Assembly (NCBI GenBank): GCA_041651455.1
Contig: JBAZJG010000007.1
Location: 2,478-66,477 of the forward strand
DNA from: Candidatus Omnitrophota bacterium
GTDB taxonomy: Bacteria; Omnitrophota; Gorgyraeia; Pluralincolimonadales; Pluralincolimonadaceae
Direction of reading: 5' to 3'
Length of the DNA: 64,000 bases
Part shown: positions 3,079 through 16,974 of the stretch, piece by piece
Position numbering within the stretch: position 1 is the stretch's first letter
How the letters are laid out: each line of letters opens with the position of its first letter
Notes under the pieces: generated by a model
Told to the model about the DNA's origin: nothing
The model's database searches: none
Seen by the model: only the letters and a program-made list of their open reading frames with translations
Made by a program: the position numbers and the translations under genes

Positions 3079-4550
3079 CACGCGCCCCTTATTATCTCTG
3101 ATGCGGCCAGCAGCAGGTCCCTGAAAAATCCCGGCGCCGCAAGGCCCATGGCGCATATCAATAATATCAATATTCCGAATGCGAACTTACCGCTCAACGG
3201 CTCCCCCTCGACCGGCATCCCCTCCGGCTTTCCGCCGAAGGCCGACCGGCTGATATTCAACACTATCGCGCTGAATGCGACGGCCATGAACAACAGCAGC
3301 AGCGCCGCCTGAGGCCAAAGGCCCATCTTGAATCCCGCCAGCAATATCATTATCTCGCTGAAGAATGCTGAGAACGGCGGCGAACCGGTCAGCGCAAATA
3401 CGCCGATAATGAGCATCGTGCCGGCAAACGGCATCGCGCTTATTATCCCGCGTATCTCCCGGATGTTGTGCGATCCGTATTTTTTTACCGCACGGCCCGC
3501 TGCGAAGAACATCAGCGATTTCGCGGCAGCATGGTTGAATATATGGAAAAGCGCGCCGTAAATAGCGACGGTCCCGCCGAACCCGAGTCCTGCCGCAATT
3601 ATCCCTATGTTCTCGACGCTGCTGTAAGCAAGCAGGCGTTTTATATCCCTCTGGACGAGCACGAAACCCGCCCCCACGCCGAGCGACACAAGCCCGAAGA
3701 GCATGAACAGGTTTCCGGTATATCCCGTGCCGATGCAGACGTTTGTTATCGTCGCGAACCTAATTATCGCGTAAATAGCCGTCGGCAGCAGTACTCCGGA
3801 GAGCATCGCGCTTATCGGCGCTAGCGCCTGGCTGTGCGCGTCCGGAAGCCATGTATGCATAGGGACGAACCCCGCCTTTGTCCCGTATCCTACGAGTATA
3901 AAAAGGAACGCTACCTTTAGAATCGACGGGTTCAGGCTGCCCGCGACCGCTGCCATGTCGGTCCAGTTCAGCGACGAGATGCCGCCGTCGCGCGAAGCCG
4001 TATAATAGAACAATATAGTGCCGAGCAAGGCAAGAGTGATGCCTACGGAACAGATTATTATATATTTCCAGGCCGCCTCGATCGATTCCTTCCTGTTATA
4101 GAACCCGACGAGGAACGCCGAGACGAGCGTTGTCATCTCTATCGCTACCCATACCATGCCAAGGTTGCTTACCAGCGGCACGCAGAGCATCGACAGCGCG
4201 AAAAGGTTGAAGAGAGCGTAGTAGGCCTTCGCCTTCCTCTCGCTCATTACCCCGTCTTTCACGTCCGCGGAGATATACCCGATCGAATAGAGCGCCGAGA
4301 TCGAATTGATTACCGATATGGTCAAGATAAAAAACGCGCTTAAAATGTCGGCATAGAAGAACCCGAGGAATGACACAGGTTCGCCGGACTTCAGCAACCC
4401 CAGCGCGAGCGTTACTGCAAGCGCCGCGTTGGCGAAATGCCCCGCCGCGTTAAGCACGCCGAATTTCCTGCTCCTGCCGGCTTTTACTCCAGGCAGGACC
4501 GCGATCCCGGCAAGCACGAGAGGTATTAGCAGTATCGGGAATATCTCCAT
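3078..4550 (-). CDS. NuoM/NuoN/MrpD-like antiporter-type membrane subunit (HyfF-like)
   Basis: The 490-aa polytopic membrane protein has conserved motifs of the complex-I antiporter-like family: WLPDAHSQA(L)AP, SAML(S)G and LLAYSSVENIG. Confidence 0.8.
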   Translation of the reverse strand: MEIFPILLIPLVLAGIAVLPGVKAGRSRKFGVLNAAGHFANAALAVTLALGLLKSGEPVSFLGFFYADILSAFFILTISVINSISALYSIGYISADVKDGVMSERKAKAYYALFNLFALSMLCVPLVSNLGMVWVAIEMTTLVSAFLVGFYNRKESIEAAWKYIIICSVGITLALLGTILFYYTASRDGGISSLNWTDMAAVAGSLNPSILKVAFLFILVGYGTKAGFVPMHTWLPDAHSQALAPISAMLSGVLLPTAIYAIIRFATITNVCIGTGYTGNLFMLFGLVSLGVGAGFVLVQRDIKRLLAYSSVENIGIIAAGLGFGGTVAIYGALFHIFNHAAAKSLMFFAAGRAVKKYGSHNIREIRGIISAMPFAGTMLIIGVFALTGSPPFSAFFSEIMILLAGFKMGLWPQAALLLLFMAVAFSAIVLNISRSAFGGKPEGMPVEGEPLSGKFAFGILILLICAMGLAAPGFFRDLLLAASEIIRGA

Positions 4551-4551
4551 A

Positions 4552-5190
4552 TCAGCCCTTCAGTTCCGTAAGTTTGTCCACATCTATGTGCGTGAAAAGC
4601 TTGTTTATCTTGAACACGAACACGCCGAGAATTATTACGACGAGCAAAATGTCGAAGAATATCGCTATCTCGACTATGAACGGCATCCCGCCCGATACGC
4701 TGGCGGCCGCGAGGAACATCCCGTTCTCCATGACAAGAAGTCCTATTATCTGCGCTAGCGCCTTCATCCTCGCCATCATGAGGAAGATACCTATCATCGT
4801 CACCGAGAGAGAGACAAAGAACGCGCTGTTCTCGAACTCCCCGGGCAAAGACAATATCTTTCCGGTAAAAAGGTACGCCATATACGAGAGGAGCACCGCC
4901 GCGAATATGGAGACGGTCGGGTTTGCCGAGAGGCCGAGGTCCTCGTTTACCTTTATCCTGCGGGCGACCCTGCACAGGAAATTCGGCACAAGAACCACCT
5001 TTATCGCGAACAACATCGTCGTAACGAAATACAGCTGGGTGGAATTCTCCCTGAACGCGAGGATGAATGTCAGCAGGAACAGGAAGAACGATTGCGCCCT
5101 GAAACCGAATATCAGCGCGGACATCCTCTTCGCGGCGACCATAGCGAATGCCATCATCAGTATCCCGAAAAGTATCAGCCCTACCGCCAT
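4552..5190 (-). CDS. HyfE-like small membrane subunit (extended NuoK-like)
   Basis: The 212-aa highly hydrophobic protein is similar in size to hydrogenase-4 HyfE. It lies 2 nt from its neighbours. Confidence 0.65.
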   Translation of the reverse strand: MAVGLILFGILMMAFAMVAAKRMSALIFGFRAQSFFLFLLTFILAFRENSTQLYFVTTMLFAIKVVLVPNFLCRVARRIKVNEDLGLSANPTVSIFAAVLLSYMAYLFTGKILSLPGEFENSAFFVSLSVTMIGIFLMMARMKALAQIIGLLVMENGMFLAAASVSGGMPFIVEIAIFFDILLVVIILGVFVFKINKLFTHIDVDKLTELKG

Positions 5191-7960: not shown

Positions 7961-8359
7961 TTAATTGCACTTTATCGGCGATCCGTCATCCTGCACTGGG
8001 GCAGGCCCCTTCATGCCGCCCTTCATCATCGGGCACGGCATCTTGCCTTCATTCATCATTCCGCCCATACCTTGCTTCATCCCGCGCATTCCCTGCATAT
8101 CGCCCCTCATGCCCCCCATCATGGGGCGCTTATCCTGCATGTTACCCATCATCGGGCATGAAATCGGGCTGGCTCCGGTAACCAGTATCGATATACCGGC
8201 TACCGCGATGACCAACGCTACCGTAATGAGCACCGCGCCTACGAATTTCCCGAACGACTTTACCTTTTCCGGAGCTTTCTCCGCCGTCAATAAGACAAAA
8301 TAGCTTACCGCCAGCAGGAGGCTCATCCACATAAGTGTTATTATCCCTACTAATGCCAT
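7961..8359 (-). CDS. Small membrane-anchored methionine/glycine-rich protein (possible soft-metal binding)
   Basis: The 132-aa product has two predicted TM helices, then PMMGNMQDKRPMMGGMRGDMQGMRGMKQGMGGMMNEGKMPCPMMKGGMKG, which contains 12 MxxM/MxM-type motifs and 3 Cys. A strong SD (AAGGAGGGCAAGGAG) directly precedes the ATG, and the start lies 16 nt after the hcp stop. The overlapping plus-strand ORF 7965-8303 is Pro-rich and has no recognisable features. Confidence 0.5.
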   Translation of the reverse strand: MALVGIITLMWMSLLLAVSYFVLLTAEKAPEKVKSFGKFVGAVLITVALVIAVAGISILVTGASPISCPMMGNMQDKRPMMGGMRGDMQGMRGMKQGMGGMMNEGKMPCPMMKGGMKGPAPVQDDGSPIKCN

Positions 8360-10455: not shown

Positions 10456-10460
10456 GGCTT

Positions 10461-10489
10461 AATGATACCATATTGGTATCTTTTGTCAA
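10461..10489 (-). promoter_or_regulatory. Promoter (TTGACA-16-TATCAT) for the rrf2-hcp unit, containing the 17-bp perfect palindrome GATACCAATATGGTATC (NsrR-like operator)
   Basis: The minus strand reads TTGACAaaaGATACCAATATGGTATCATtaagccATG. The palindrome (plus 10464-10480) fills the spacer. Its half-sites AAGATAC..GTATCATT resemble the NsrR consensus AAGATGC..GCATCTT. The -10 lies about 6 nt from the ATG, so the Rrf2 mRNA may be leaderless. Confidence 0.45.
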
Positions 10490-10495
10490 GCAAAA

Positions 10496-10536
10496 TAAAA
10501 GGGACGGTTCTTGAGCTAATCAATAAACCGTCCCTT
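10496..10536 (-). terminator. Rho-independent terminator after the 188-aa secreted protein gene
   Basis: An 11-bp perfect stem (AAGGGACGGTT/AACCGTCCCTT) with a 16-nt loop is followed, on the minus-strand RNA, by UUUUAUUUUG. Confidence 0.55.
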
Positions 10537-10539
10537 AAG

Positions 10540-11106
10540 CTATTCCTCCCCTAACCTGCGGCTAAGGTAGCCACCGGTAAGGCCGTCTATCGTTGCGGTG
10601 AGTTCTTCTATGCGGAACTCCCTTTCGAGGTATGAGGCGCTTTCCTTATCCTGGATCTTCCCAAGCTGTTTTTGGATCTTTTTTCGCTCGAAGTATGCGG
10701 CGTTAAGGTCGTTTAGGATATCGTTTCTTAGCTGGACCATCAGCTTGGAGCGGGAGTCGATGGAAGTCTGGGCGCTGTTGTAGACGAGATCTCCTAAGTC
10801 CCACTTGGCGGTAAAGTCCCAGCTGCTGCTGGTGTCATCCGGACCTATGTAATAGTTGGTCTTACCGGAAAGCGTGGCTGCGGTAACAGTTGCGTCGATA
10901 TCGTTGCCGTATCCAACGCTTATCTCGGGGAGTAGGGCCTTCATTGCAGCTTGCTTGCGCCAGGTTGAGATCTTGTCCGGGCTGACCTCTGCATACTTTA
11001 TGGCGGCCTTCTGGAGCTCCTGGATGGTGGGCTCTTCCTGCGCCTTGGCCTGTATCGGTAGGAATAGAACTATACCTATTATGACTGCAGGTGCTATACG
11101 TCTCAT
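10540..11106 (-). CDS. Hypothetical secreted protein with a single TolC/OEP-like repeat
   Basis: A signal peptide MRRIAPAVIIGIVLFLPIQAKA is present. The segment TIQELQKAAIKYAEVSPDK...ALLPEISVGYG resembles one repeat of outer-membrane efflux proteins. GC content is lower than in the flanking genes. Confidence 0.4.
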   Translation of the reverse strand: MRRIAPAVIIGIVLFLPIQAKAQEEPTIQELQKAAIKYAEVSPDKISTWRKQAAMKALLPEISVGYGNDIDATVTAATLSGKTNYYIGPDDTSSSWDFTAKWDLGDLVYNSAQTSIDSRSKLMVQLRNDILNDLNAAYFERKKIQKQLGKIQDKESASYLEREFRIEELTATIDGLTGGYLSRRLGEE

Positions 11107-11166
11107 TCTTCTTATCTCCTTTCTGAGGTAATAGACGTAGATTATGAGGAAATTCTTTCAATTATC

Positions 11167-12069
11167 TTATCTTGACCGCTGTTCTTCCCATTCCCTGTAT
11201 CCGGGATAGACAGGGCCCAGTTCTTCGACCTCCCCAGCCTCAAGGTTGCGCAAACCATCGGGTTGGATATAGTAATCAAAACCATTCCTTTGCAGACGCA
11301 TCTTTCCATACTTTCCATTCGGAGTTATGAAATAACAATAAACATCTCCGTTGTCCTGCTTTCTATAATAATCATCCCACTTTATTGTGCTGACATAACC
11401 CGATTCCGGGGCTTCAGTCATCCATTCATATTTAGCATAATAATAATTTGATTCGATTTTATGTTTAGGATAACCTTTATAATAGACAAAGCCGCCCGGC
11501 TCTTTCATCGTATAAACAATCTCATCTTTGTCATTATATGTTCGTGTTAACCATACGGTATCGTCCTCATCAACAGGGAAGTACCATAATTTATTGAATG
11601 ACCATCCGTATTTCTTGTCTTCTGAAAACATATGGTATGGCACAAATGTATCAACATGCTGAAGCCTAGAAGGAACTCCCTTCTTGACGAGCCGGATCAT
11701 TAAATCTTTCGCGATTATCTTACCGCCTTTCTCGTATTCAGATAATTCTACCACATCCCCATGATATCCTTCCTTAGATGCTCTGATTGTGCAAAATGTT
11801 GCATCCGGCAGTTTCCAATCATACGTGCCATTGTAAAATACCTTCTCGTTCGTCTTTTTATCGGATGTAATTTCATCGTAAAATTTGCTTCTAACTACAT
11901 CCGGATATGTCACATTTTCAAGCTCGGCAATAAGGGTAACTTCGCTTGTGATCAGACTCCCATTCTGATCAACGATCTTGCCCGAGATTTCAATCTCGTT
12001 CAGAAATTGAAAAGCATACGTATAATTTCCAAATAGTACAAGAATTCCCATAACCACATATTTGTACAT
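11167..12069 (-). CDS. Hypothetical secreted protein (AT-rich island)
   Basis: The 300-aa product has signal peptide MYKYVVMGILVLFGNYTYA and an N-terminal CarbD_reg-like stretch (ISGKIVDQNGSLITSEV). It is rich in Tyr, Lys, Asp and Glu. The gene starts 1 nt after the stop of the 1060-aa gene. Confidence 0.45.
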   Translation of the reverse strand: MYKYVVMGILVLFGNYTYAFQFLNEIEISGKIVDQNGSLITSEVTLIAELENVTYPDVVRSKFYDEITSDKKTNEKVFYNGTYDWKLPDATFCTIRASKEGYHGDVVELSEYEKGGKIIAKDLMIRLVKKGVPSRLQHVDTFVPYHMFSEDKKYGWSFNKLWYFPVDEDDTVWLTRTYNDKDEIVYTMKEPGGFVYYKGYPKHKIESNYYYAKYEWMTEAPESGYVSTIKWDDYYRKQDNGDVYCYFITPNGKYGKMRLQRNGFDYYIQPDGLRNLEAGEVEELGPVYPGYREWEEQRSR

Positions 12070-12070
12070 A

Positions 12071-15000
12071 TTACCTCCTTATCAATATGTTTTTTAAAAT
12101 TAATGTATCATAATATTCAACTACATCATAATAATACTCATTTCCAATACTTAAATGATCGCGAATACCGTAAGGATGAACAGTATTTGGACCATATCGA
12201 ATGCTATCAAAATTTGATATTTTAGATTTTATGTCCTGGCCTCCTAATCCTCCCGATTTACTTATTTCAAATCTGTATCCACCCACATTTAAATAATCAT
12301 ACATATCATGTATAGGAAGCAGTATATACTCATCGTCTAAGGGCACCGGTAATCCGTATTTCCCTAATATACCGGACCACCATACTCCTTCCAGATCCCG
12401 CTTGAAAAGATCGATTATTTTGTCACCTCTATAATATAAGTTGTACATGATGCCTGTGATATTATTTTCTATCGAGGGCACATACATGTCCTTATAATAA
12501 TCTATTTCGGGTCTACTCGCATATGCGTTGCCTGGCACGGCTACCTGTGCCAGGAATACGTTATCAACTAATCCTTTCTTCCCTTGCGTTGCCAATAAGC
12601 GGAGAGCATATGAAATAAGATTTCCTCCTAACGAATGGGCAAGAATATTTATTCTGGCATTCTTGTATTCGCTTTTAGTATCCTCTATTATGTCGGCTAG
12701 AACCTGTCCGGTCTGAAATGAATTTACCCACTGATTATCGAATAACATTTTTGGATTATCAAGCCCACCGAGTCCCTCTTCAGTATCCCACGAAAACCCG
12801 ATAAAGCCACCTCTATAACCGGACCAATATAGACGTTTATATATTGTATTATTCCACTCGATTGCACTCTTCTTTGGCGTCCAAGCGCCGTGTATGAACA
12901 TTATTATTGAGGATGGATCCTTCATAAACATATCGTGTTTTTCTACACTTATATTGCGGTACCTCAGCTGTCCATCCATGTCAATGCTTGTGCCGCCCCT
13001 AACATCTACGAATCTATACATATCCCTTACATTTTTCACAGTAATATATACTTCGTCTAATATGATTTCTTCCTTCTTTTTACCATTGCTGAATTCTACC
13101 GCAAGTATAACCTTTAGCCGGCCGGGCTCCACCCCCTCAAATAGTGCGCAAAAGTCACCGTTATCATCGAAATATTTGGGATCAAGCTCTTTTTGATCTT
13201 TTGCAGAAAGGTTAAGAACAACTGTCTTTCTGTATTGTTCGATTGATGAATTTAGATCTTTCAGGTAAGTAAAATACATTAAATCCTTTAAATCTTTTAC
13301 TCTTTCAAATAATTTTATTCTGCCTGTTCCCTCTGCATTTAATTTATATTTTATTCCCTTATCCTGGCCTATCCATTCTTTGATATTCGGTACTGATATA
13401 TTAATCGGCATAAAATCTTCTAAATCGCGGATACCGTTTATGTTCCCATCGGCGCTGTCATTGCCCTTGCTATTTACTGCATCTTTATCATCCTGATGAA
13501 CCGGAGAATCGTCATAATCGTCATCATCATTCACCCAAAACACGCACCCGGGCTCGTTTTGCTCGACGGCGTTGTCCTCGCCGCCGAGGAAGCCGTCGTT
13601 GTTGGAGTCGATTAGGATATCGCCAGTAATACCGTATTCTACGTTCGCACAAAATAGCCTGGTGACGGGACCTGGACTAGAGGCAAATCCTGGATATAAA
13701 GGAGCGTCTATAACTAGTTGGAAATCTTTATCGGGATTATCGTTATCAAATACTACATATGTATGCAATGGCTTACACAGGTTCAGCGGCTCTTTCTTAA
13801 TAAGAGGTTCGGACAAGTACCCCATGCTTATCCCATTTGCCTTATATCTGCTAACATCTAAAGGCACATTCCACCAATTCTTGTCCATCCAAAACATATT
13901 AGATGTCTCAATAAACCAGCAATCTTTAAATATGATCGTATACTTATTTGTTTGTTTGGGTGGGCTGTGCAAGGTCATATTAATAGTATCCTCCCTTGTG
14001 GCTCCGTCCTGTACGTTAAAAAGACTGTCATGAAGAAAGAAGCCCCCTGCTATCCAAGGATAACTACCTATCGAATAATATGCTGTTCCTCTATCGTAAT
14101 AATTGTAGCGGCCGTGGTTGTTTTGATGGGTGTTAGTTGAATATATGGGGAATATGTCCCTCGTATCGTATTTTACATCTGCCCATCCTGCAAACGGTGA
14201 TTCTTGAAGAAAATCAGAATTATATGCGTCGGTATTATAATAATCATAATCCTCTGGTACTATCACGTATTCGCCCGTAAGCGGACTTAATACGGATCTT
14301 TCCACGTGTGTCCTGTTATTAGTGGATGAATACACAAATAACTGATAGTAGTTGTAAACTATCCTGTCCTCATAGGACTTTCCCGTATCCAAAGTAACTT
14401 TAACTTTTAGTATATTTTCCCCCGAATGCGTATTAGGGTCTACCCTCATCAGTATGTATTTGGGCGAATCAGCATTGACGTTATATTCTCTGGCTTTGCC
14501 CGGGCAGATGAGCATTGGACCTTCAAATGTTCCCGCCGGCTTGTTGAGTGCGCAGGGCTGGCCGTTGACGGTAATCGAGGTTATGCCTGCATTTAAATTG
14601 AATCTACCGCCTATCTTTAATTCCTTTTCGGTAATTACCTGGCCGGAGTACGGGGAACTGAATACAACGTCCTGATCTTTCCCCTTCTGGAGCTCCTTTG
14701 GTTGCTCTATCCGGCGTTCTGTCCGTGTTGAAAGCTTCTTCTTCGGAGGCGCCGTATAGCCTTCCGCTGCCGCGCCTACATCAACAACAGGCCCATCGGA
14801 TATCCTGCCGCCTCCCTGCATTGGCCCGCCCGGCTCTGAATATACCGAATACGACACCAGCCTCCTCCTACCGTTTGTATCTGCCATTGATATAAGGAAG
14901 GTATTAAGGCCTTCTTTTAACTGCAGGCGGCTGAATTCAAAGTTATTATCCTCTATTCTCGCTTCCGTTCCCTTGATGCTTACAGATTTTATCTGGAAAT

Positions 15001-15253
15001 CAGGCATAACCTTGCCTTTAAGGGTGAGATGGTCATCGCGGATGACAGAGAACTGCACGGGGGAAATAGATTTGAAGCCGACCGGGAGGTTTAGGTCTAT
15101 ATTAATGCCCCCGTGGGCGTTTGAAGGAATAAAAAAAGGCGTCATAATCGCCAGAAATACATACAGTATTAAATGTTTGATCTTCATATTTACCATTAAG
15201 TTGCCTGTTCTTCGAAACATGATTATTTTACCTCCCCTATATATACATGTCAA
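12071..15253 (-). CDS. Large secreted multidomain protein with a C-terminal alpha/beta-hydrolase (lipase/esterase-like) domain
   Basis: The 1060-aa product has a signal peptide (MKIKHLILYVFLAIMTPFFIPSNAHG; the true start is probably the internal Met near 15187). An acidic Asp-rich, Ca-binding-like segment reads DSNNDGFLGGEDN...NDDDDYDD. The C-terminal domain has IIMFIHGAW...NILAHSLGGNL, which is a GHSLGG serine-nucleophile elbow. The gene is markedly lower in GC than the flanks. Confidence 0.55.
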   Translation of the reverse strand: MTCIYRGGKIIMFRRTGNLMVNMKIKHLILYVFLAIMTPFFIPSNAHGGINIDLNLPVGFKSISPVQFSVIRDDHLTLKGKVMPDFQIKSVSIKGTEARIEDNNFEFSRLQLKEGLNTFLISMADTNGRRRLVSYSVYSEPGGPMQGGGRISDGPVVDVGAAAEGYTAPPKKKLSTRTERRIEQPKELQKGKDQDVVFSSPYSGQVITEKELKIGGRFNLNAGITSITVNGQPCALNKPAGTFEGPMLICPGKAREYNVNADSPKYILMRVDPNTHSGENILKVKVTLDTGKSYEDRIVYNYYQLFVYSSTNNRTHVERSVLSPLTGEYVIVPEDYDYYNTDAYNSDFLQESPFAGWADVKYDTRDIFPIYSTNTHQNNHGRYNYYDRGTAYYSIGSYPWIAGGFFLHDSLFNVQDGATREDTINMTLHSPPKQTNKYTIIFKDCWFIETSNMFWMDKNWWNVPLDVSRYKANGISMGYLSEPLIKKEPLNLCKPLHTYVVFDNDNPDKDFQLVIDAPLYPGFASSPGPVTRLFCANVEYGITGDILIDSNNDGFLGGEDNAVEQNEPGCVFWVNDDDDYDDSPVHQDDKDAVNSKGNDSADGNINGIRDLEDFMPINISVPNIKEWIGQDKGIKYKLNAEGTGRIKLFERVKDLKDLMYFTYLKDLNSSIEQYRKTVVLNLSAKDQKELDPKYFDDNGDFCALFEGVEPGRLKVILAVEFSNGKKKEEIILDEVYITVKNVRDMYRFVDVRGGTSIDMDGQLRYRNISVEKHDMFMKDPSSIIMFIHGAWTPKKSAIEWNNTIYKRLYWSGYRGGFIGFSWDTEEGLGGLDNPKMLFDNQWVNSFQTGQVLADIIEDTKSEYKNARINILAHSLGGNLISYALRLLATQGKKGLVDNVFLAQVAVPGNAYASRPEIDYYKDMYVPSIENNITGIMYNLYYRGDKIIDLFKRDLEGVWWSGILGKYGLPVPLDDEYILLPIHDMYDYLNVGGYRFEISKSGGLGGQDIKSKISNFDSIRYGPNTVHPYGIRDHLSIGNEYYYDVVEYYDTLILKNILIRR

Positions 15254-15404
15254 TGCTATTTTTTATGTCATTATATAATAGACGTAAATCTATAAATATT
15301 TCTTTCAAATTTTATAGTCCCTTTAAATAGCAATATATTCCTCTTTACAGCTCCCCTCTCCCCCTGTATAATTACGTATAATTCAAAATTGGGGGTTGAG
15401 AAAA

Positions 15405-15941
15405 ATGGGAAGAAAAGTATCAGCGATAGTATTTTGCCTTTTTTTAGTCCTTTCCTTCGACACGTTTTTATCAGTCGCACACGCTGATTTCAACGTCTAT
15501 ACAGTAGCTAATTCGGGCAGCATTTCACCGAAGACATCGTTCAGTTATGATGAGATTCCGTGGCTCTACATTGAAGTACCCGGTTTCAGCGGATATCCGG
15601 GAATGTACCCCAGGATGACGATATCGGCAGGATGGATGTACCAGGGCGAACCGCCTTCTATAACCGTGAATGGGTTCGACCAGGAATTTTATCCGAATGG
15701 TTTCCAGAATACGTGGATACAGCTGAGCGAGTGGGATTCCGTCAAACAGGTAGGTGCGTGGGATATTGCCGCGACTTACTCTATATATACCCTGAACGGA
15801 TATACCCCGAACTTCATCGCGAACGGGACAGATTTCTCGAGTTTTGAGGTAACTCCTATACCCGAGCCGACCTCCCTTATGCTTCTCGGCAGCGGCCTCA
15901 TAGGCATTTTCGGAACATTCCGCCGCAAGTTCAAGCGATAG
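15405..15941 (+). CDS. PEP-CTERM sorting-domain protein (exosortase substrate)
   Basis: An N-terminal signal peptide is present. The C-terminus is VTPIPEPTSLMLLGSGLIGIFGTFRRKFKR: a PEP motif, a hydrophobic helix and a basic tail. The ATG at 15405 has GGGGG 9 nt upstream. The ORF-track start at 15396 is a TTG. Confidence 0.7.
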   Translation: MGRKVSAIVFCLFLVLSFDTFLSVAHADFNVYTVANSGSISPKTSFSYDEIPWLYIEVPGFSGYPGMYPRMTISAGWMYQGEPPSITVNGFDQEFYPNGFQNTWIQLSEWDSVKQVGAWDIAATYSIYTLNGYTPNFIANGTDFSSFEVTPIPEPTSLMLLGSGLIGIFGTFRRKFKR

Positions 15942-16974
15942 TCCTGCCAATAGAAAAAGCAAGCGATGCCATACACGGCGCACACACGCCGGTCGCTTCG
16001 CTTATGCACCTCTTATTCGGGTAGATCTCGTATAACTTCCTATACTTCGCGGGCGTGTAGTTCGGCATAAGCACATTCGCGCCTGCCTTCAGCCCCTCCG
16101 CCCTGTAATCCTTTCCCATGCTCCCTAATGCGGTCGTAGCGGGCAGGTTAACCTTTTTTACCACGATACGCGTAAGCGCAAGCGTTTTCAGCACGAGGCT
16201 GACATCGCCGGGCTCTGTTCCGGCAAGCTGCGTCCTGTCGTGGGGTATGAACGGTCCTATGCCGATCATGTCGAAACCCCATTCCTTGAAGAATAATATG
16301 TCGTTAGCTATCGAGCGCAGCGTCTGCCCCGGCAGTCCTACCATTATCCCGGAACCGGTCTCGTAACCTAGCTCTTTCAGGTCGCGCAGGCAGCGCAGGC
16401 GGTTCTCGAATTCCATGCCGGTATGGAGGGAATCGTAGAGTTTCTTGTCAGAGGTCTCTATCTTAAGCAGGTACCTGTCGGCTCCCGCATTCTTCCATAA
16501 TTCGTAATCCTCACGGGGACGTTCGCCAACGGAGAGCGTGACGGCGATACCGTGTTTAGATTTTATCTCCTTAACGATGGCGGCGAGGCGTTGCGGGTCG
16601 AGCGCGGGGTCTTCACCGGACTGCAGGACTATCGTCTTGATATTATCGGATGCGATCTTCGCGGCGCTTTCCAGTATTTCCGCGTCCGACAGGCGGTATC
16701 TTTCGAGGGACCTGTTCGCGGCGTTGAGCCCGCAGTAATAGCAGTGCCTGCCGCAATGGTTGGAGAATTCGACGAGCCCGCGCAGGAGGATCGCTTCGCC
16801 GGCGTATTGCTTGCGGACCTCGTCGGCGCAATTATAAATCTCCCTGAGACCGGCCGCTCCTTCCTCATTAAGGATTGTCTCTATAATAGATACCGAGGGA
16901 CTAGCGCTGAGGGTGTCCCCCCGGAGGATGGCTCCGATGTATTTAGACGTATTCATCCCGCATCCCTGCGTCAA
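15931..16974 (-). CDS. hydE: [FeFe]-hydrogenase maturase HydE (radical SAM)
   Basis: The radical-SAM motif CGRHCYYCG is present. The product is about 345 aa and resembles biotin synthase. The gene is the last of the hydF-hydG-hydE run. Confidence 0.8.
   Translation of the reverse strand: MTQGCGMNTSKYIGAILRGDTLSASPSVSIIETILNEEGAAGLREIYNCADEVRKQYAGEAILLRGLVEFSNHCGRHCYYCGLNAANRSLERYRLSDAEILESAAKIASDNIKTIVLQSGEDPALDPQRLAAIVKEIKSKHGIAVTLSVGERPREDYELWKNAGADRYLLKIETSDKKLYDSLHTGMEFENRLRCLRDLKELGYETGSGIMVGLPGQTLRSIANDILFFKEWGFDMIGIGPFIPHDRTQLAGTEPGDVSLVLKTLALTRIVVKKVNLPATTALGSMGKDYRAEGLKAGANVLMPNYTPAKYRKLYEIYPNKRCISEATGVCAPCMASLAFSIGRTIA

Follow-up and report, generated by a model that had tools for sequence, protein, structure and literature searches.

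Exchange of hydrolase and partner alleles at an AT-rich locus of Omnitrophota

Between hydE and the Rrf2/hcp unit, a 64-kb stretch of DNA from Candidatus Omnitrophota bacterium (contig JBAZJG010000007.1; the whole stretch is referred to as the window) carries three minus-strand genes arranged head to tail, which encode a large secreted alpha/beta hydrolase, a partner protein of 300 amino acids (aa) and a secreted protein of 188 aa. Comparison of this locus with its counterparts in other genomes and metagenomes (designated L with a number) reveals that alleles of the hydrolase/partner pair are exchanged by recombination at defined junctions, such that it is the allele that moves and not the locus, and that the partner is specific to the allele class of the catalytic domain. 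The interpretation that we prefer, and to which we give about an even chance, is that the hydrolase is a secreted, lipase-like effector which probably leaves the cell through a type II secretion system (T2SS), that its partner is cognate and protective, and that the two are organised in the manner of a polymorphic toxin system. The features on which the argument is built are listed here; GC3 is the GC fraction at third codon positions.

12071..15187, minus strand: hydrolase gene, 1038 aa, 100% identical to the deposited Omnitrophota protein P0001 ('alpha/beta hydrolase')
11167..12069, minus strand: partner gene, 300 aa, starting 1 nt past the hydrolase stop
10540..11106, minus strand: gene of the 188-aa secreted protein, a conserved neighbour outside the variable block
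11150..14400, minus strand: hypervariable AT-rich block, from about aa 260 of the hydrolase to its stop plus the whole partner gene; boundaries approximate
14318..15187, minus strand: first (5') quarter of the hydrolase gene, aa 1-290, which descends with the host backbone; composition intermediate (GC3 0.52)
13388..13627, minus strand: conserved junction block, aa 521-600, DILxDSNNDGxLGGxDN...PGCVFWVNDDDD...INGIRDLEDxxP
12074..12967, minus strand: alpha/beta-hydrolase catalytic domain (aa 741-1038), DUF900 above the gathering threshold

Exchange of alleles at defined junctions

Full-length homologues of the hydrolase number 18, with 36-60% identity (all those with a named source are from Omnitrophota), and scans of genomes and metagenomes added 34 further loci. 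Wherever a locus reaches beyond the stop of the hydrolase gene, a partner homologue lies directly 3' of that gene, and none of the related genomes sampled lacks the pair, which is often present twice. Its position at the hydE/hcp site is shared by at least four relatives (L001, L004, L020 and L038), in the order hydF/G/E, hydrolase, partner, 188-aa gene, Rrf2, hcp as far as each contig reaches; the interval between hydE and the hydrolase gene is occupied by a PEP-CTERM gene in L001, L004 and L020, and by an IS200-type transposase in L038. At other loci the hydrolase, partner and 188-aa genes occur together in different surroundings. The pair is therefore a conserved module and not a one-off insertion. 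In L038 (4795-9022), the transposase is of the IS200/IS605 Y1 type and the hydrolase is apparently split or 5'-truncated (159 aa + 922 aa).

Within this shared gene order, the flanking genes of the relatives are 85-90% identical to those of the window, versus 25-60% in the block from about 11,150 to 14,400. The amino acid identities between the window and L001 are as follows.

hcp: 90%
Rrf2: 86%
188-aa gene: 87%
partner: 48%
hydrolase: 51%
hydE: 86%
hydG: 85%

At the nucleotide level, the identity between the window and L020 is 82-92% through hydG, hydE, the PEP-CTERM gene and the first ~700 nt of the hydrolase gene, drops to 49-66% from ~14,400 to 11,400, and returns to 81-85% in the 188-aa gene; the profiles against L001 and L004 are similar. 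The N-terminal 290 residues of the hydrolase are 75-85% identical to those of L020, L002, L004 and L025, and the corresponding DNA is 86-87% identical to that of L020, with a synonymous divergence (dS) of 0.52 and a ratio of nonsynonymous to synonymous divergence (dN/dS) of 0.16. DNA identity thus narrows the anomalous block to ~11,150-14,400, from the extent of 10,460-15,400 proposed for it in an earlier annotation based on the sequence of the window (the original prediction).

The hydrolase was divided into four segments, N (aa 1-290), M (291-520), D (521-740) and C (741-1038). L010 and L027 are 99-100% identical in nucleotide sequence across a 10-kb T2SS operon and 92-99% identical over the first 2 kb of the hydrolase gene that follows it, after which identity falls abruptly to ~55% through the 3' end of that gene and the partner gene; the breakpoint is located just 3' of the INGIRDLED motif of the junction block. 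The segment identities for this pair of loci, and for a second one, are given below.

L010 / L027: N 93%, M 99%, D 78%, C 39%, partner 45%
L004 / L022: N 57%, M 26%, D 79%, C 93%, partner 88%

Partner identity correlates with the identity of segments C (r = 0.68) and D (r = 0.64; Mantel p < 0.0005), and is uncorrelated with that of segments N (-0.07) and M (0.03). The three stretches of the hydrolase gene that are most conserved in nucleotide sequence (aa 527-538, 546-557 and 583-594) all fall in the junction block, with pairwise identities of 0.80-0.83 versus 0.53 overall. This block is likely to be the homology anchor for cassette exchange, as well as a putative Ca2+-binding core of the PAD_M type.

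On the other side of the exchanged block, the 188-aa gene is probably the downstream homology arm. Its product, which carries a signal peptide, has 112 homologues across Omnitrophota, those of close relatives being 87-91% identical; a profile of the family gave no match in the PDB. We considered the gene as a component of the cassette and rejected this possibility, on the grounds that its composition and divergence are host-like and that it also occurs without the hydrolase/partner pair nearby: the protein is neither foreign nor obviously a partner. Of what had been predicted for it, the terminator-like hairpin 3' of the gene holds, while the TolC-like repeat corresponds only to a sub-threshold match to the OEP family (16 bits, cut-off 22) and the gene lies outside the low-GC block. 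In a more distant Omnitrophota genome (L039, 200-10600), a homologue with 71% identity is the last gene of an operon that also encodes an 872-aa protein with immunoglobulin (Ig) domains (Glucodextran_B, Big_7, Big_1), a 378-aa protein, a 732-aa PGAP1/DUF676 alpha/beta hydrolase, a tetratricopeptide repeat protein and a family-2 glycosyltransferase, with a HydG-like gene and hcp adjacent ~8 kb downstream; Ig domains and a hydrolase are therefore again linked to a homologue of the 188-aa protein.

Some loci have two or three partner genes, the extra ones being found in L021, L022 and L030. The partner adjacent to the hydrolase is always of the resident catalytic class, and the extra copies are of other classes. 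In L030, for example, the catalytic domain and partner 1 are respectively 88% and 76% identical to those of L021, and partner 2, an orphan, is 85% identical to the partner of L001 and has a dN/dS of 0.10. Decayed partner remnants are recognizable downstream in L004 and L022. In L032 and L036, contigs from different metagenomes, a partner-like gene is followed by in-frame stops and then by a hydrolase frame that has no start and begins just before INGIRDLED. Conversely, in L029 and L031 the hydrolase-family gene ends ~45 aa past INGIRDLED, without a catalytic domain; after the truncated gene of L029, the place expected for the partner is taken by a multi-pass membrane protein of 202 aa (4148-4756), which is unrelated and matches nothing in Pfam. 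The window itself contains no orphan cassettes.

Within allele classes dN/dS is 0.1-0.2, and between classes synonymous sites are saturated; the alleles are therefore old and functional, and owe their divergence to reassortment, not to rapid mutation. These values do not support rapid positive selection as its cause. A diversity-generating retroelement was also considered for the hypervariable M region, whose mean identity is 30%, and no reverse transcriptase was present in any of the neighbourhoods listed. The nearest known relatives of the block in the window show identities of 58-62% for the catalytic domain, 34-35% for the variable region and 56% for the partner, a distance from which it follows that the donor is unsampled.

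The two proteins and their link to type II secretion

From N- to C-terminus the hydrolase consists of a Sec signal peptide (aa 1-26, ending in ...SNAHG and followed by GINIDL), two Ig-like domains with a disordered linker (38-300), a hypervariable beta-rich region (291-520), a region resembling the peptidylarginine deiminases (PADs) (521-740) and a DUF900 domain (741-1038), as derived from Pfam, an AlphaFold 2 (AF2) model, Foldseek and alignments. The AF2 model (mean predicted local distance difference test score, pLDDT, 68) shows a signal helix, the two Ig-like domains split by the disordered linker, the beta-rich region, further beta domains, and a canonical alpha/beta-hydrolase fold at the C-terminus. 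A Glucodextran_B match to the Ig-like part (aa 64-137) is just under threshold. DUF900 (PF05990) matches residues 778-902 with 25.8 bits (cut-off 20.5), and reaches 27.6 bits in L010, 27.9 in L034 and 41.7 in L009. Pfam had been recommended as a check on the hydrolase domain; in that search DUF676 (19.7 bits, cut-off 20.3) and DUF726 (16.7 bits, cut-off 22.6), like Tle3, remained below threshold for the window protein. Residues H766-G767, S852 (in the motif HS[LM]G, which is HSLG in the window), D922 and H1011 are invariant in 24 homologues from several phyla, and in the AF2 model the HG and triad positions follow the strands expected in the canonical fold, with canonical order of strands and helices. 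The early description of this gene product as a secreted GxSxG alpha/beta hydrolase is therefore sound, with the signal peptide recognized by inspection. The key codons, all on the minus strand, are the following.

12,887-12,892, minus strand: HG oxyanion motif
12,632-12,634, minus strand: Ser852
12,422-12,424, minus strand: Asp922
12,155-12,157, minus strand: His1011

A search of the PDB with a profile of the full hydrolase yielded only weak matches near the nucleophile elbow (Bacillus LipA, E ~0.1), and Foldseek results for the whole model are dominated by arrays of Ig domains (alpha-2-macroglobulin and similar). Neither NCBIfam nor PADLOC had any match for the hydrolase, the 300-aa or the 188-aa protein.

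The acidic segment that includes the junction block (DILxDSNNDG...VNDDDD...INGIRDLED) is the most conserved part of the hydrolase family. In Foldseek the whole-hydrolase model matches PAD2/3/4 with a probability of 1.0 and E-values of 1e-6 to 1e-7, the aligned range of the query not being reported; PAD_M is also the most recurrent sub-threshold Pfam match to the acidic segment (5 of 22 members, best E 0.075). On this basis the PAD match of the model probably belongs to the acidic segment (aa 521-740), and the latter would be a PAD-like, Ca2+-binding Ig module; its NDDDD and DLED-type motifs are, as we presume, similar to the Ca sites of PADs. Searches of PDB sequences with the segment, alone or as a profile, gave no match. 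The likeness would be to the N-terminal and middle Ca2+-binding Ig-like domains of PAD2/3/4, with the difference that here they are fused to an alpha/beta hydrolase, not to a deiminase, and that the sequence match is below threshold. The Asp-rich, Ca-binding-like segment noticed at the outset is thus real, and it probably binds Ca2+.

The hydrolase is predicted to be an esterase, lipase or phospholipase. A secreted enzyme of the DUF900 type, cinquedea, is a bactericidal phospholipase A (bioRxiv 10.64898/2026.06.10.730825), and is the only characterised DUF900-associated enzyme that we found. This protein from Haloferax larsenii resembles the window hydrolase in belonging to the DUF900/DUF726 neighbourhood, in having a signal peptide and a Ser-Asp-His triad, and in acting outside the cell (same source); it differs in being a single-domain, single-gene archaeal protein without a partner gene, in lacking the PAD-like and Ig-like domains, and in that no variation of cassettes has been reported for it.

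The partner begins with a signal or anchor helix, which is followed by a CarboxypepD_reg-like beta-sandwich and by a second beta domain that carries the conserved motifs APExGY and NPDGSRNLE. Its AF2 model is all-beta (pLDDT 78) and retrieved with Foldseek only generic beta-sandwich or pilin-like partial matches (TM ~0.2), with no functional lead; a profile of the family had no match among PDB sequences, and neither search recognized an immunity or chaperone fold. The family is rare, with 170 representatives among 1.84 billion proteins. In P0184 (867 aa) and P0193 (1179 aa) the partner-family domain is found at the N-terminus of much longer proteins. Modules composed of a PAD-like region and a hydrolase are also present in Verrucomicrobiota, Acidobacteriota and an alphaproteobacterial metagenome-assembled genome, each followed by a protein of ~310-370 aa with an N-terminal membrane anchor and a long low-complexity linker, for which hhalign shows homology to the partner (probability 97.3%, E 1.8e-11).

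Both proteins of the pair carry N-terminal signal-like sequences by inspection. That of the hydrolase reads MKIKHLILYVFLAIMTPFFIPSNAHG, followed by G, and the mature N-terminus GI[ND]IDL is conserved in homologues. The pair follows the gene for the secretin GspD at a distance of 17-73 nt in six loci (L008, L010, L012, L026, L027 and L029), which come from at least five assemblies. The upstream operon of L010, L012 and L027 encodes GspE, GspF, GspG, pseudopilins, PilM/N, PilO, an AAA ATPase, GspC and GspD; L008 and L026 include only the last genes of the T2SS operon, and L029 only the secretin. Giant exported proteins of Omnitrophota are likewise preceded by T2SS-like loci and have been linked to predation (West-Roberts et al., bioRxiv 10.1101/2023.11.21.568195). 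A literature search for T2SS effector/immunity precedents returned only work on type VI secretion systems (T6SS). Directly after the T2SS-linked pair of L008 (13655-18548) and L026 (13598-18462) there is a second protein of ~1300 aa, with Ig-like domains and a variable region (26-28% identity to aa 179-506 of the window protein) and without a recognizable hydrolase domain, which is followed by a very AT-rich gene of 329-337 aa (GC3 0.30-0.36) with a weak PepSY match; the two may form a sister module with a different C-terminal activity.

Linkage to T2SS operons, together with the position and behaviour of the partner, brings to mind the Lif foldases of Pseudomonas and Burkholderia. The partner could be a private steric chaperone or secretion helper of this kind, and its co-variation with the catalytic domain would then trace a folding interface. 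The points of resemblance to LipA/Lif are these: a probably lipolytic, T2SS-linked enzyme is encoded immediately upstream of a dedicated, translationally coupled and periplasm-facing partner, and in other phyla the partner has the membrane anchor and long low-complexity linker that are also seen in Lif. The partner is all-beta, however, with a CarboxypepD_reg-like domain, while the Lif fold is helical; neither Pfam nor the PDB provided a sequence or fold match to lipase chaperones; and the locus is hypervariable, with intact non-cognate extra copies under purifying selection for which a private chaperone has no obvious use. We judge this explanation unlikely on balance, and infer that the partner is a protective inhibitor rather than a foldase: an immunity function is favoured because intact non-cognate orphan copies of the partner exist, and a foldase retains some weight because of the anchored-linker partners of other phyla and of the T2SS link.

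Base composition and organization of the locus

The sharp drop in GC with AT-rich third codon positions, which had first drawn attention to this region, is confirmed by calculation. In 1-kb windows the GC fraction is 0.36-0.46 across ~11.0-15.5 kb (low values span 10,751 to 16,000), versus a mean of 0.541 (sd 0.023, minimum 0.493) elsewhere in the 64 kb. GC3 is 0.42 in the hydrolase gene and 0.40 in the 300-aa gene, and 0.65-0.79 in nearly all other long open reading frames (ORFs); the first two codon positions (GC12) are likewise AT-shifted. Inside the hydrolase gene there is a gradient of GC3, from 0.52 at aa 1-290 through 0.40-0.42 in the middle to 0.36 in the catalytic domain, with values of 0.36-0.42 in the hypervariable block as a whole; the 188-aa gene, with a GC3 of 0.65, is host-like. 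In the proteins of the block Tyr, Asn and Asp are abundant and Ala is scarce (the 300-aa protein has 10.7% Tyr and 2.7% Ala, with Ala at ~10% in flanking proteins), so that composition counts bear out the Tyr/Asn bias that had been described.

The bias is not peculiar to the window. In ~13 loci whose flanks have a GC3 mostly of 0.6-0.83, the GC3 of the hydrolase/partner pair is only 0.33-0.50, and the block is AT-rich in every GC-rich host examined. The best reading of the AT-richness is that it is a property of a long-lived, laterally circulating allele pool, and does not testify to a recent foreign insertion. The low GC3 would be kept, despite synonymous saturation, either by continual re-import from low-GC Omnitrophota or by selection or a local mutational regime.

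In keeping with its composition, the region had been regarded as a horizontally acquired island, which in its explicit form would be one recently received from a low-GC donor and inserted between hydE and hcp in this lineage. The strength of the deviation, in GC3 as well as GC12, speaks for such an origin, as do the IS200-type transposase beside the homologous locus of L038 and the compositionally native appearance of the pair in the low-GC Omnitrophota L009, L029 and L031. Against it stand the occupation of the same site in at least four relatives with flanks that are 85-90% identical, the lack of any tRNA, integrase or flanking repeat in the window, and the divergence of the 5' quarter of the hydrolase gene and of the 188-aa gene at the host rate. 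Conservation of the pair in relatives had itself been named as an observation that would speak against acquisition, and its presence in every related genome sampled largely amounts to that. At most the current allele of the internal block is foreign, having arrived by homologous replacement; for the locus as such, the notion of an acquired island is largely refuted, and we hold it to be very unlikely.

Two other low-GC regions were noted near homologous pairs. In L010 (9-9961, UBA6215), the whole 10-kb T2SS operon upstream of a paralogous pair is AT-shifted (GC3 ~0.45 versus 0.57-0.67 downstream), and the compositional anomaly can therefore reach into the secretion machinery. In L003 (1-4990, UBA6215), a low-GC restriction-modification/Mrr cluster is located ~5 kb upstream of the pair; its GC3 is 0.25-0.38 in three of four genes and 0.60 in that of the N6 methyltransferase, and it has the look of a conventional defence island, in contrast to the hydrolase locus.

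The remaining features of the three-gene unit and its surroundings are as follows.

12,071-15,253, minus strand: large ORF, with the TTG start as first proposed
15225..15253, minus strand: promoter-like site TTGACA-17-TAAAAT ahead of the hydrolase gene, in agreement with the consensus at 11 of 12 positions
10492..10536, minus strand: intrinsic-terminator-like hairpin, AAGGGACGGTT, 16-nt loop, AACCGTCCCTT, then TTTTATTTT; from reading of the sequence
10,489-10,462: promoter-like site of Rrf2/hcp, following the terminator-like hairpin
15396-15941, plus strand: PEP-CTERM protein gene, 181 aa, divergent from the hydrolase gene (Pfam PF07589, 28.9 bits)
7961-8359, minus strand: 132-aa membrane or secreted protein, downstream of hcp

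The length of 1060 aa originally given for the hydrolase does not stand, because the TTG at 15,253 from which it was counted belongs to the -35 hexamer of a promoter close to the consensus. For this reason we place the likely start at the ATG at 15,187, which gives 1038 aa; in-frame ATGs at 15,196 and 15,220 are possible alternatives. The 300-aa gene does begin 1 nt downstream of the hydrolase gene, as first stated, and the partner is translationally coupled to the hydrolase. The three-gene unit is closed by a terminator-like stem-loop and T-run 3' of the 188-aa gene (10,536-10,492), which was found by reading, its 16-nt loop exceeding what the automatic terminator scan reports. The PEP-CTERM gene, whose 3' end overlaps that of hydE by 11 nt, keeps its position in L001, L004 and L020 (65-73% identity) and has an intermediate GC3 (0.55). 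The 132-aa protein has a Met/Gly-rich tail (MGNMQDKRPMMGGMRGDMQGMRGMKQGMGGMM...) and a homologue at the same position in L001 (65% identity), and may be involved in metal binding or oxidant scavenging.

The divergent PEP-CTERM surface protein, the Ig-like domains and hypervariable central region of the hydrolase, and the arrangement of a low-GC variable core between conserved flanks, which resembles that of surface-antigen loci, would all suit a different explanation, according to which the hydrolase is a surface adhesin or envelope enzyme subject to antigenic variation and the partner a structural co-factor or anchor. The hydrolase would be retained on the cell by its Ig-like array and act on the surface of the cell itself or of a host, and the variation would be due to phages, grazers or host recognition, not to toxicity. 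Yet the unit that is swapped is the catalytic domain with the partner, and the most variable region, M, is uncorrelated with the latter; arrays of non-cognate partners are hard to explain in this way; and the invariance of the catalytic triad indicates that what matters is the enzyme activity. We consider antigenic variation quite unlikely as the basis of the diversity. As an evolutionary analogy, the rfb O-antigen clusters of Enterobacteria also have an AT-rich divergent core at a fixed site that is exchanged via recombination in conserved flanks; their gene content is entirely different, and here the breakpoints lie inside a coding sequence.

Functional interpretation and known systems

In the interpretation that we prefer, that of a lipase-like effector with its protective partner, the hydrolase would leave the cell by type II secretion and act on foreign membranes (of prey, host or competitor) or on surface esters. 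The partner, periplasmic or membrane-anchored, would protect the producer by inhibiting the enzyme, i.e. as an immunity protein, and the spare partner copies would protect against the alleles of neighbours. The diversity comes from homologous recombination, and not from point mutation: the 3' part of the hydrolase gene is replaced together with the partner gene. The upstream anchor is likely to be either the conserved 5' region or the INGIRDLED block, and the downstream anchor the 188-aa gene; left over from the process are partner genes that were displaced and truncated cassettes that lack a start. An effector/immunity pair had been among the original suggestions for this locus. The co-variation of the two proteins, the non-cognate tandem partners and the swapping of cassettes agree with it, while the expected fold is missing, as the partner has no recognizable immunity or chaperone fold.

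Several observations weigh against this interpretation. All the allelic C-termini are homologous hydrolases with the same triad, while classical polymorphic toxins swap unrelated domains. Physical linkage by itself could account for part of the co-variation between the partner and the domain next to it. The motifs of the partner are strongly conserved across phyla, and the protein has no similarity to known Tli or other immunity folds. The DUF900 score of the window hydrolase is modest (25.8 bits), and the biochemical function of both proteins is inferred. There is no T2SS operon within the 64 kb of the window, the linkage being found only at paralogous or orthologous loci. Finally, the interpretation does not account mechanistically for the persistence of the AT-richness.

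Among known systems, the closest in organization are the CDI (contact-dependent inhibition) and Rhs toxins (CdiA-CT/CdiI, Rhs-CT/RhsI). The locus shares with them a conserved N-terminal part, a variable C-terminal part and an invariant junction motif, a co-varying cognate gene downstream, displaced partners and start-less orphan cassettes, and the occurrence of near-identical strains that differ by a replaced 3' end and partner. Unlike them, it has none of the TPS/FHA, Rhs/YD, PAAR or LXG delivery domains in Pfam and NCBIfam scans; its C-terminal alleles are all alpha/beta hydrolases, both proteins have Sec signals, and the linked machinery is a T2SS. The T6SS lipase effectors Tle1-5 with their Tli partners offer a second parallel, in that a GxSxG alpha/beta hydrolase is encoded next to a periplasm-targeted partner; Tli immunity genes form tandem arrays, as the partner genes do here. 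In this case the differences are that the enzyme has a signal peptide of its own and that the Pfam Tle3 match is below threshold (16.2 bits in the window and 24.5 in L009, cut-off 27). No T6SS genes (VgrG, Hcp, PAAR) appear in the gene and Pfam lists of L001, L002, L003 and L038, the full window not having been scanned for T6SS.

A broader proposal, which we advance as a doubtful though conceivable one, is that Omnitrophota and their relatives in Verrucomicrobiota and Acidobacteriota possess an unrecognised polymorphic class of effectors, dependent on Sec and T2SS and not on an injector that requires contact. Each would be a Ca2+-gated, phospholipase-like enzyme swapped at INGIRDLED together with a periplasmic immunity protein, with the silent orphan cassettes as a reservoir and a pool whose AT-richness would persist in GC-rich genomes, for instance for silencing or expression control, or through circulation among lineages; the product might serve as a weapon or as a factor of host attack.

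As to the wider meaning of these results, the locus is a compositional 'island' without being an insertion, a long-lived recombining allele pool with a GC3 of ~0.4 in hosts with a GC3 of ~0.7-0.8. It advises caution in taking low GC as a mark of recent transfer, and raises the question of what maintains the bias. The Omnitrophota are uncultured nanobacteria suspected of predation or parasitism, whose factors of attack and competition are almost unknown. The locus is a concrete and testable candidate for such a factor, in which a secreted hydrolase is paired with a matched partner, the allele classes are clear, cognate and non-cognate combinations occur naturally, and the recombination junction is defined. 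Should the partner prove to be an immunity protein, the logic of polymorphic toxins would extend to enzymes exported by Sec and the T2SS.

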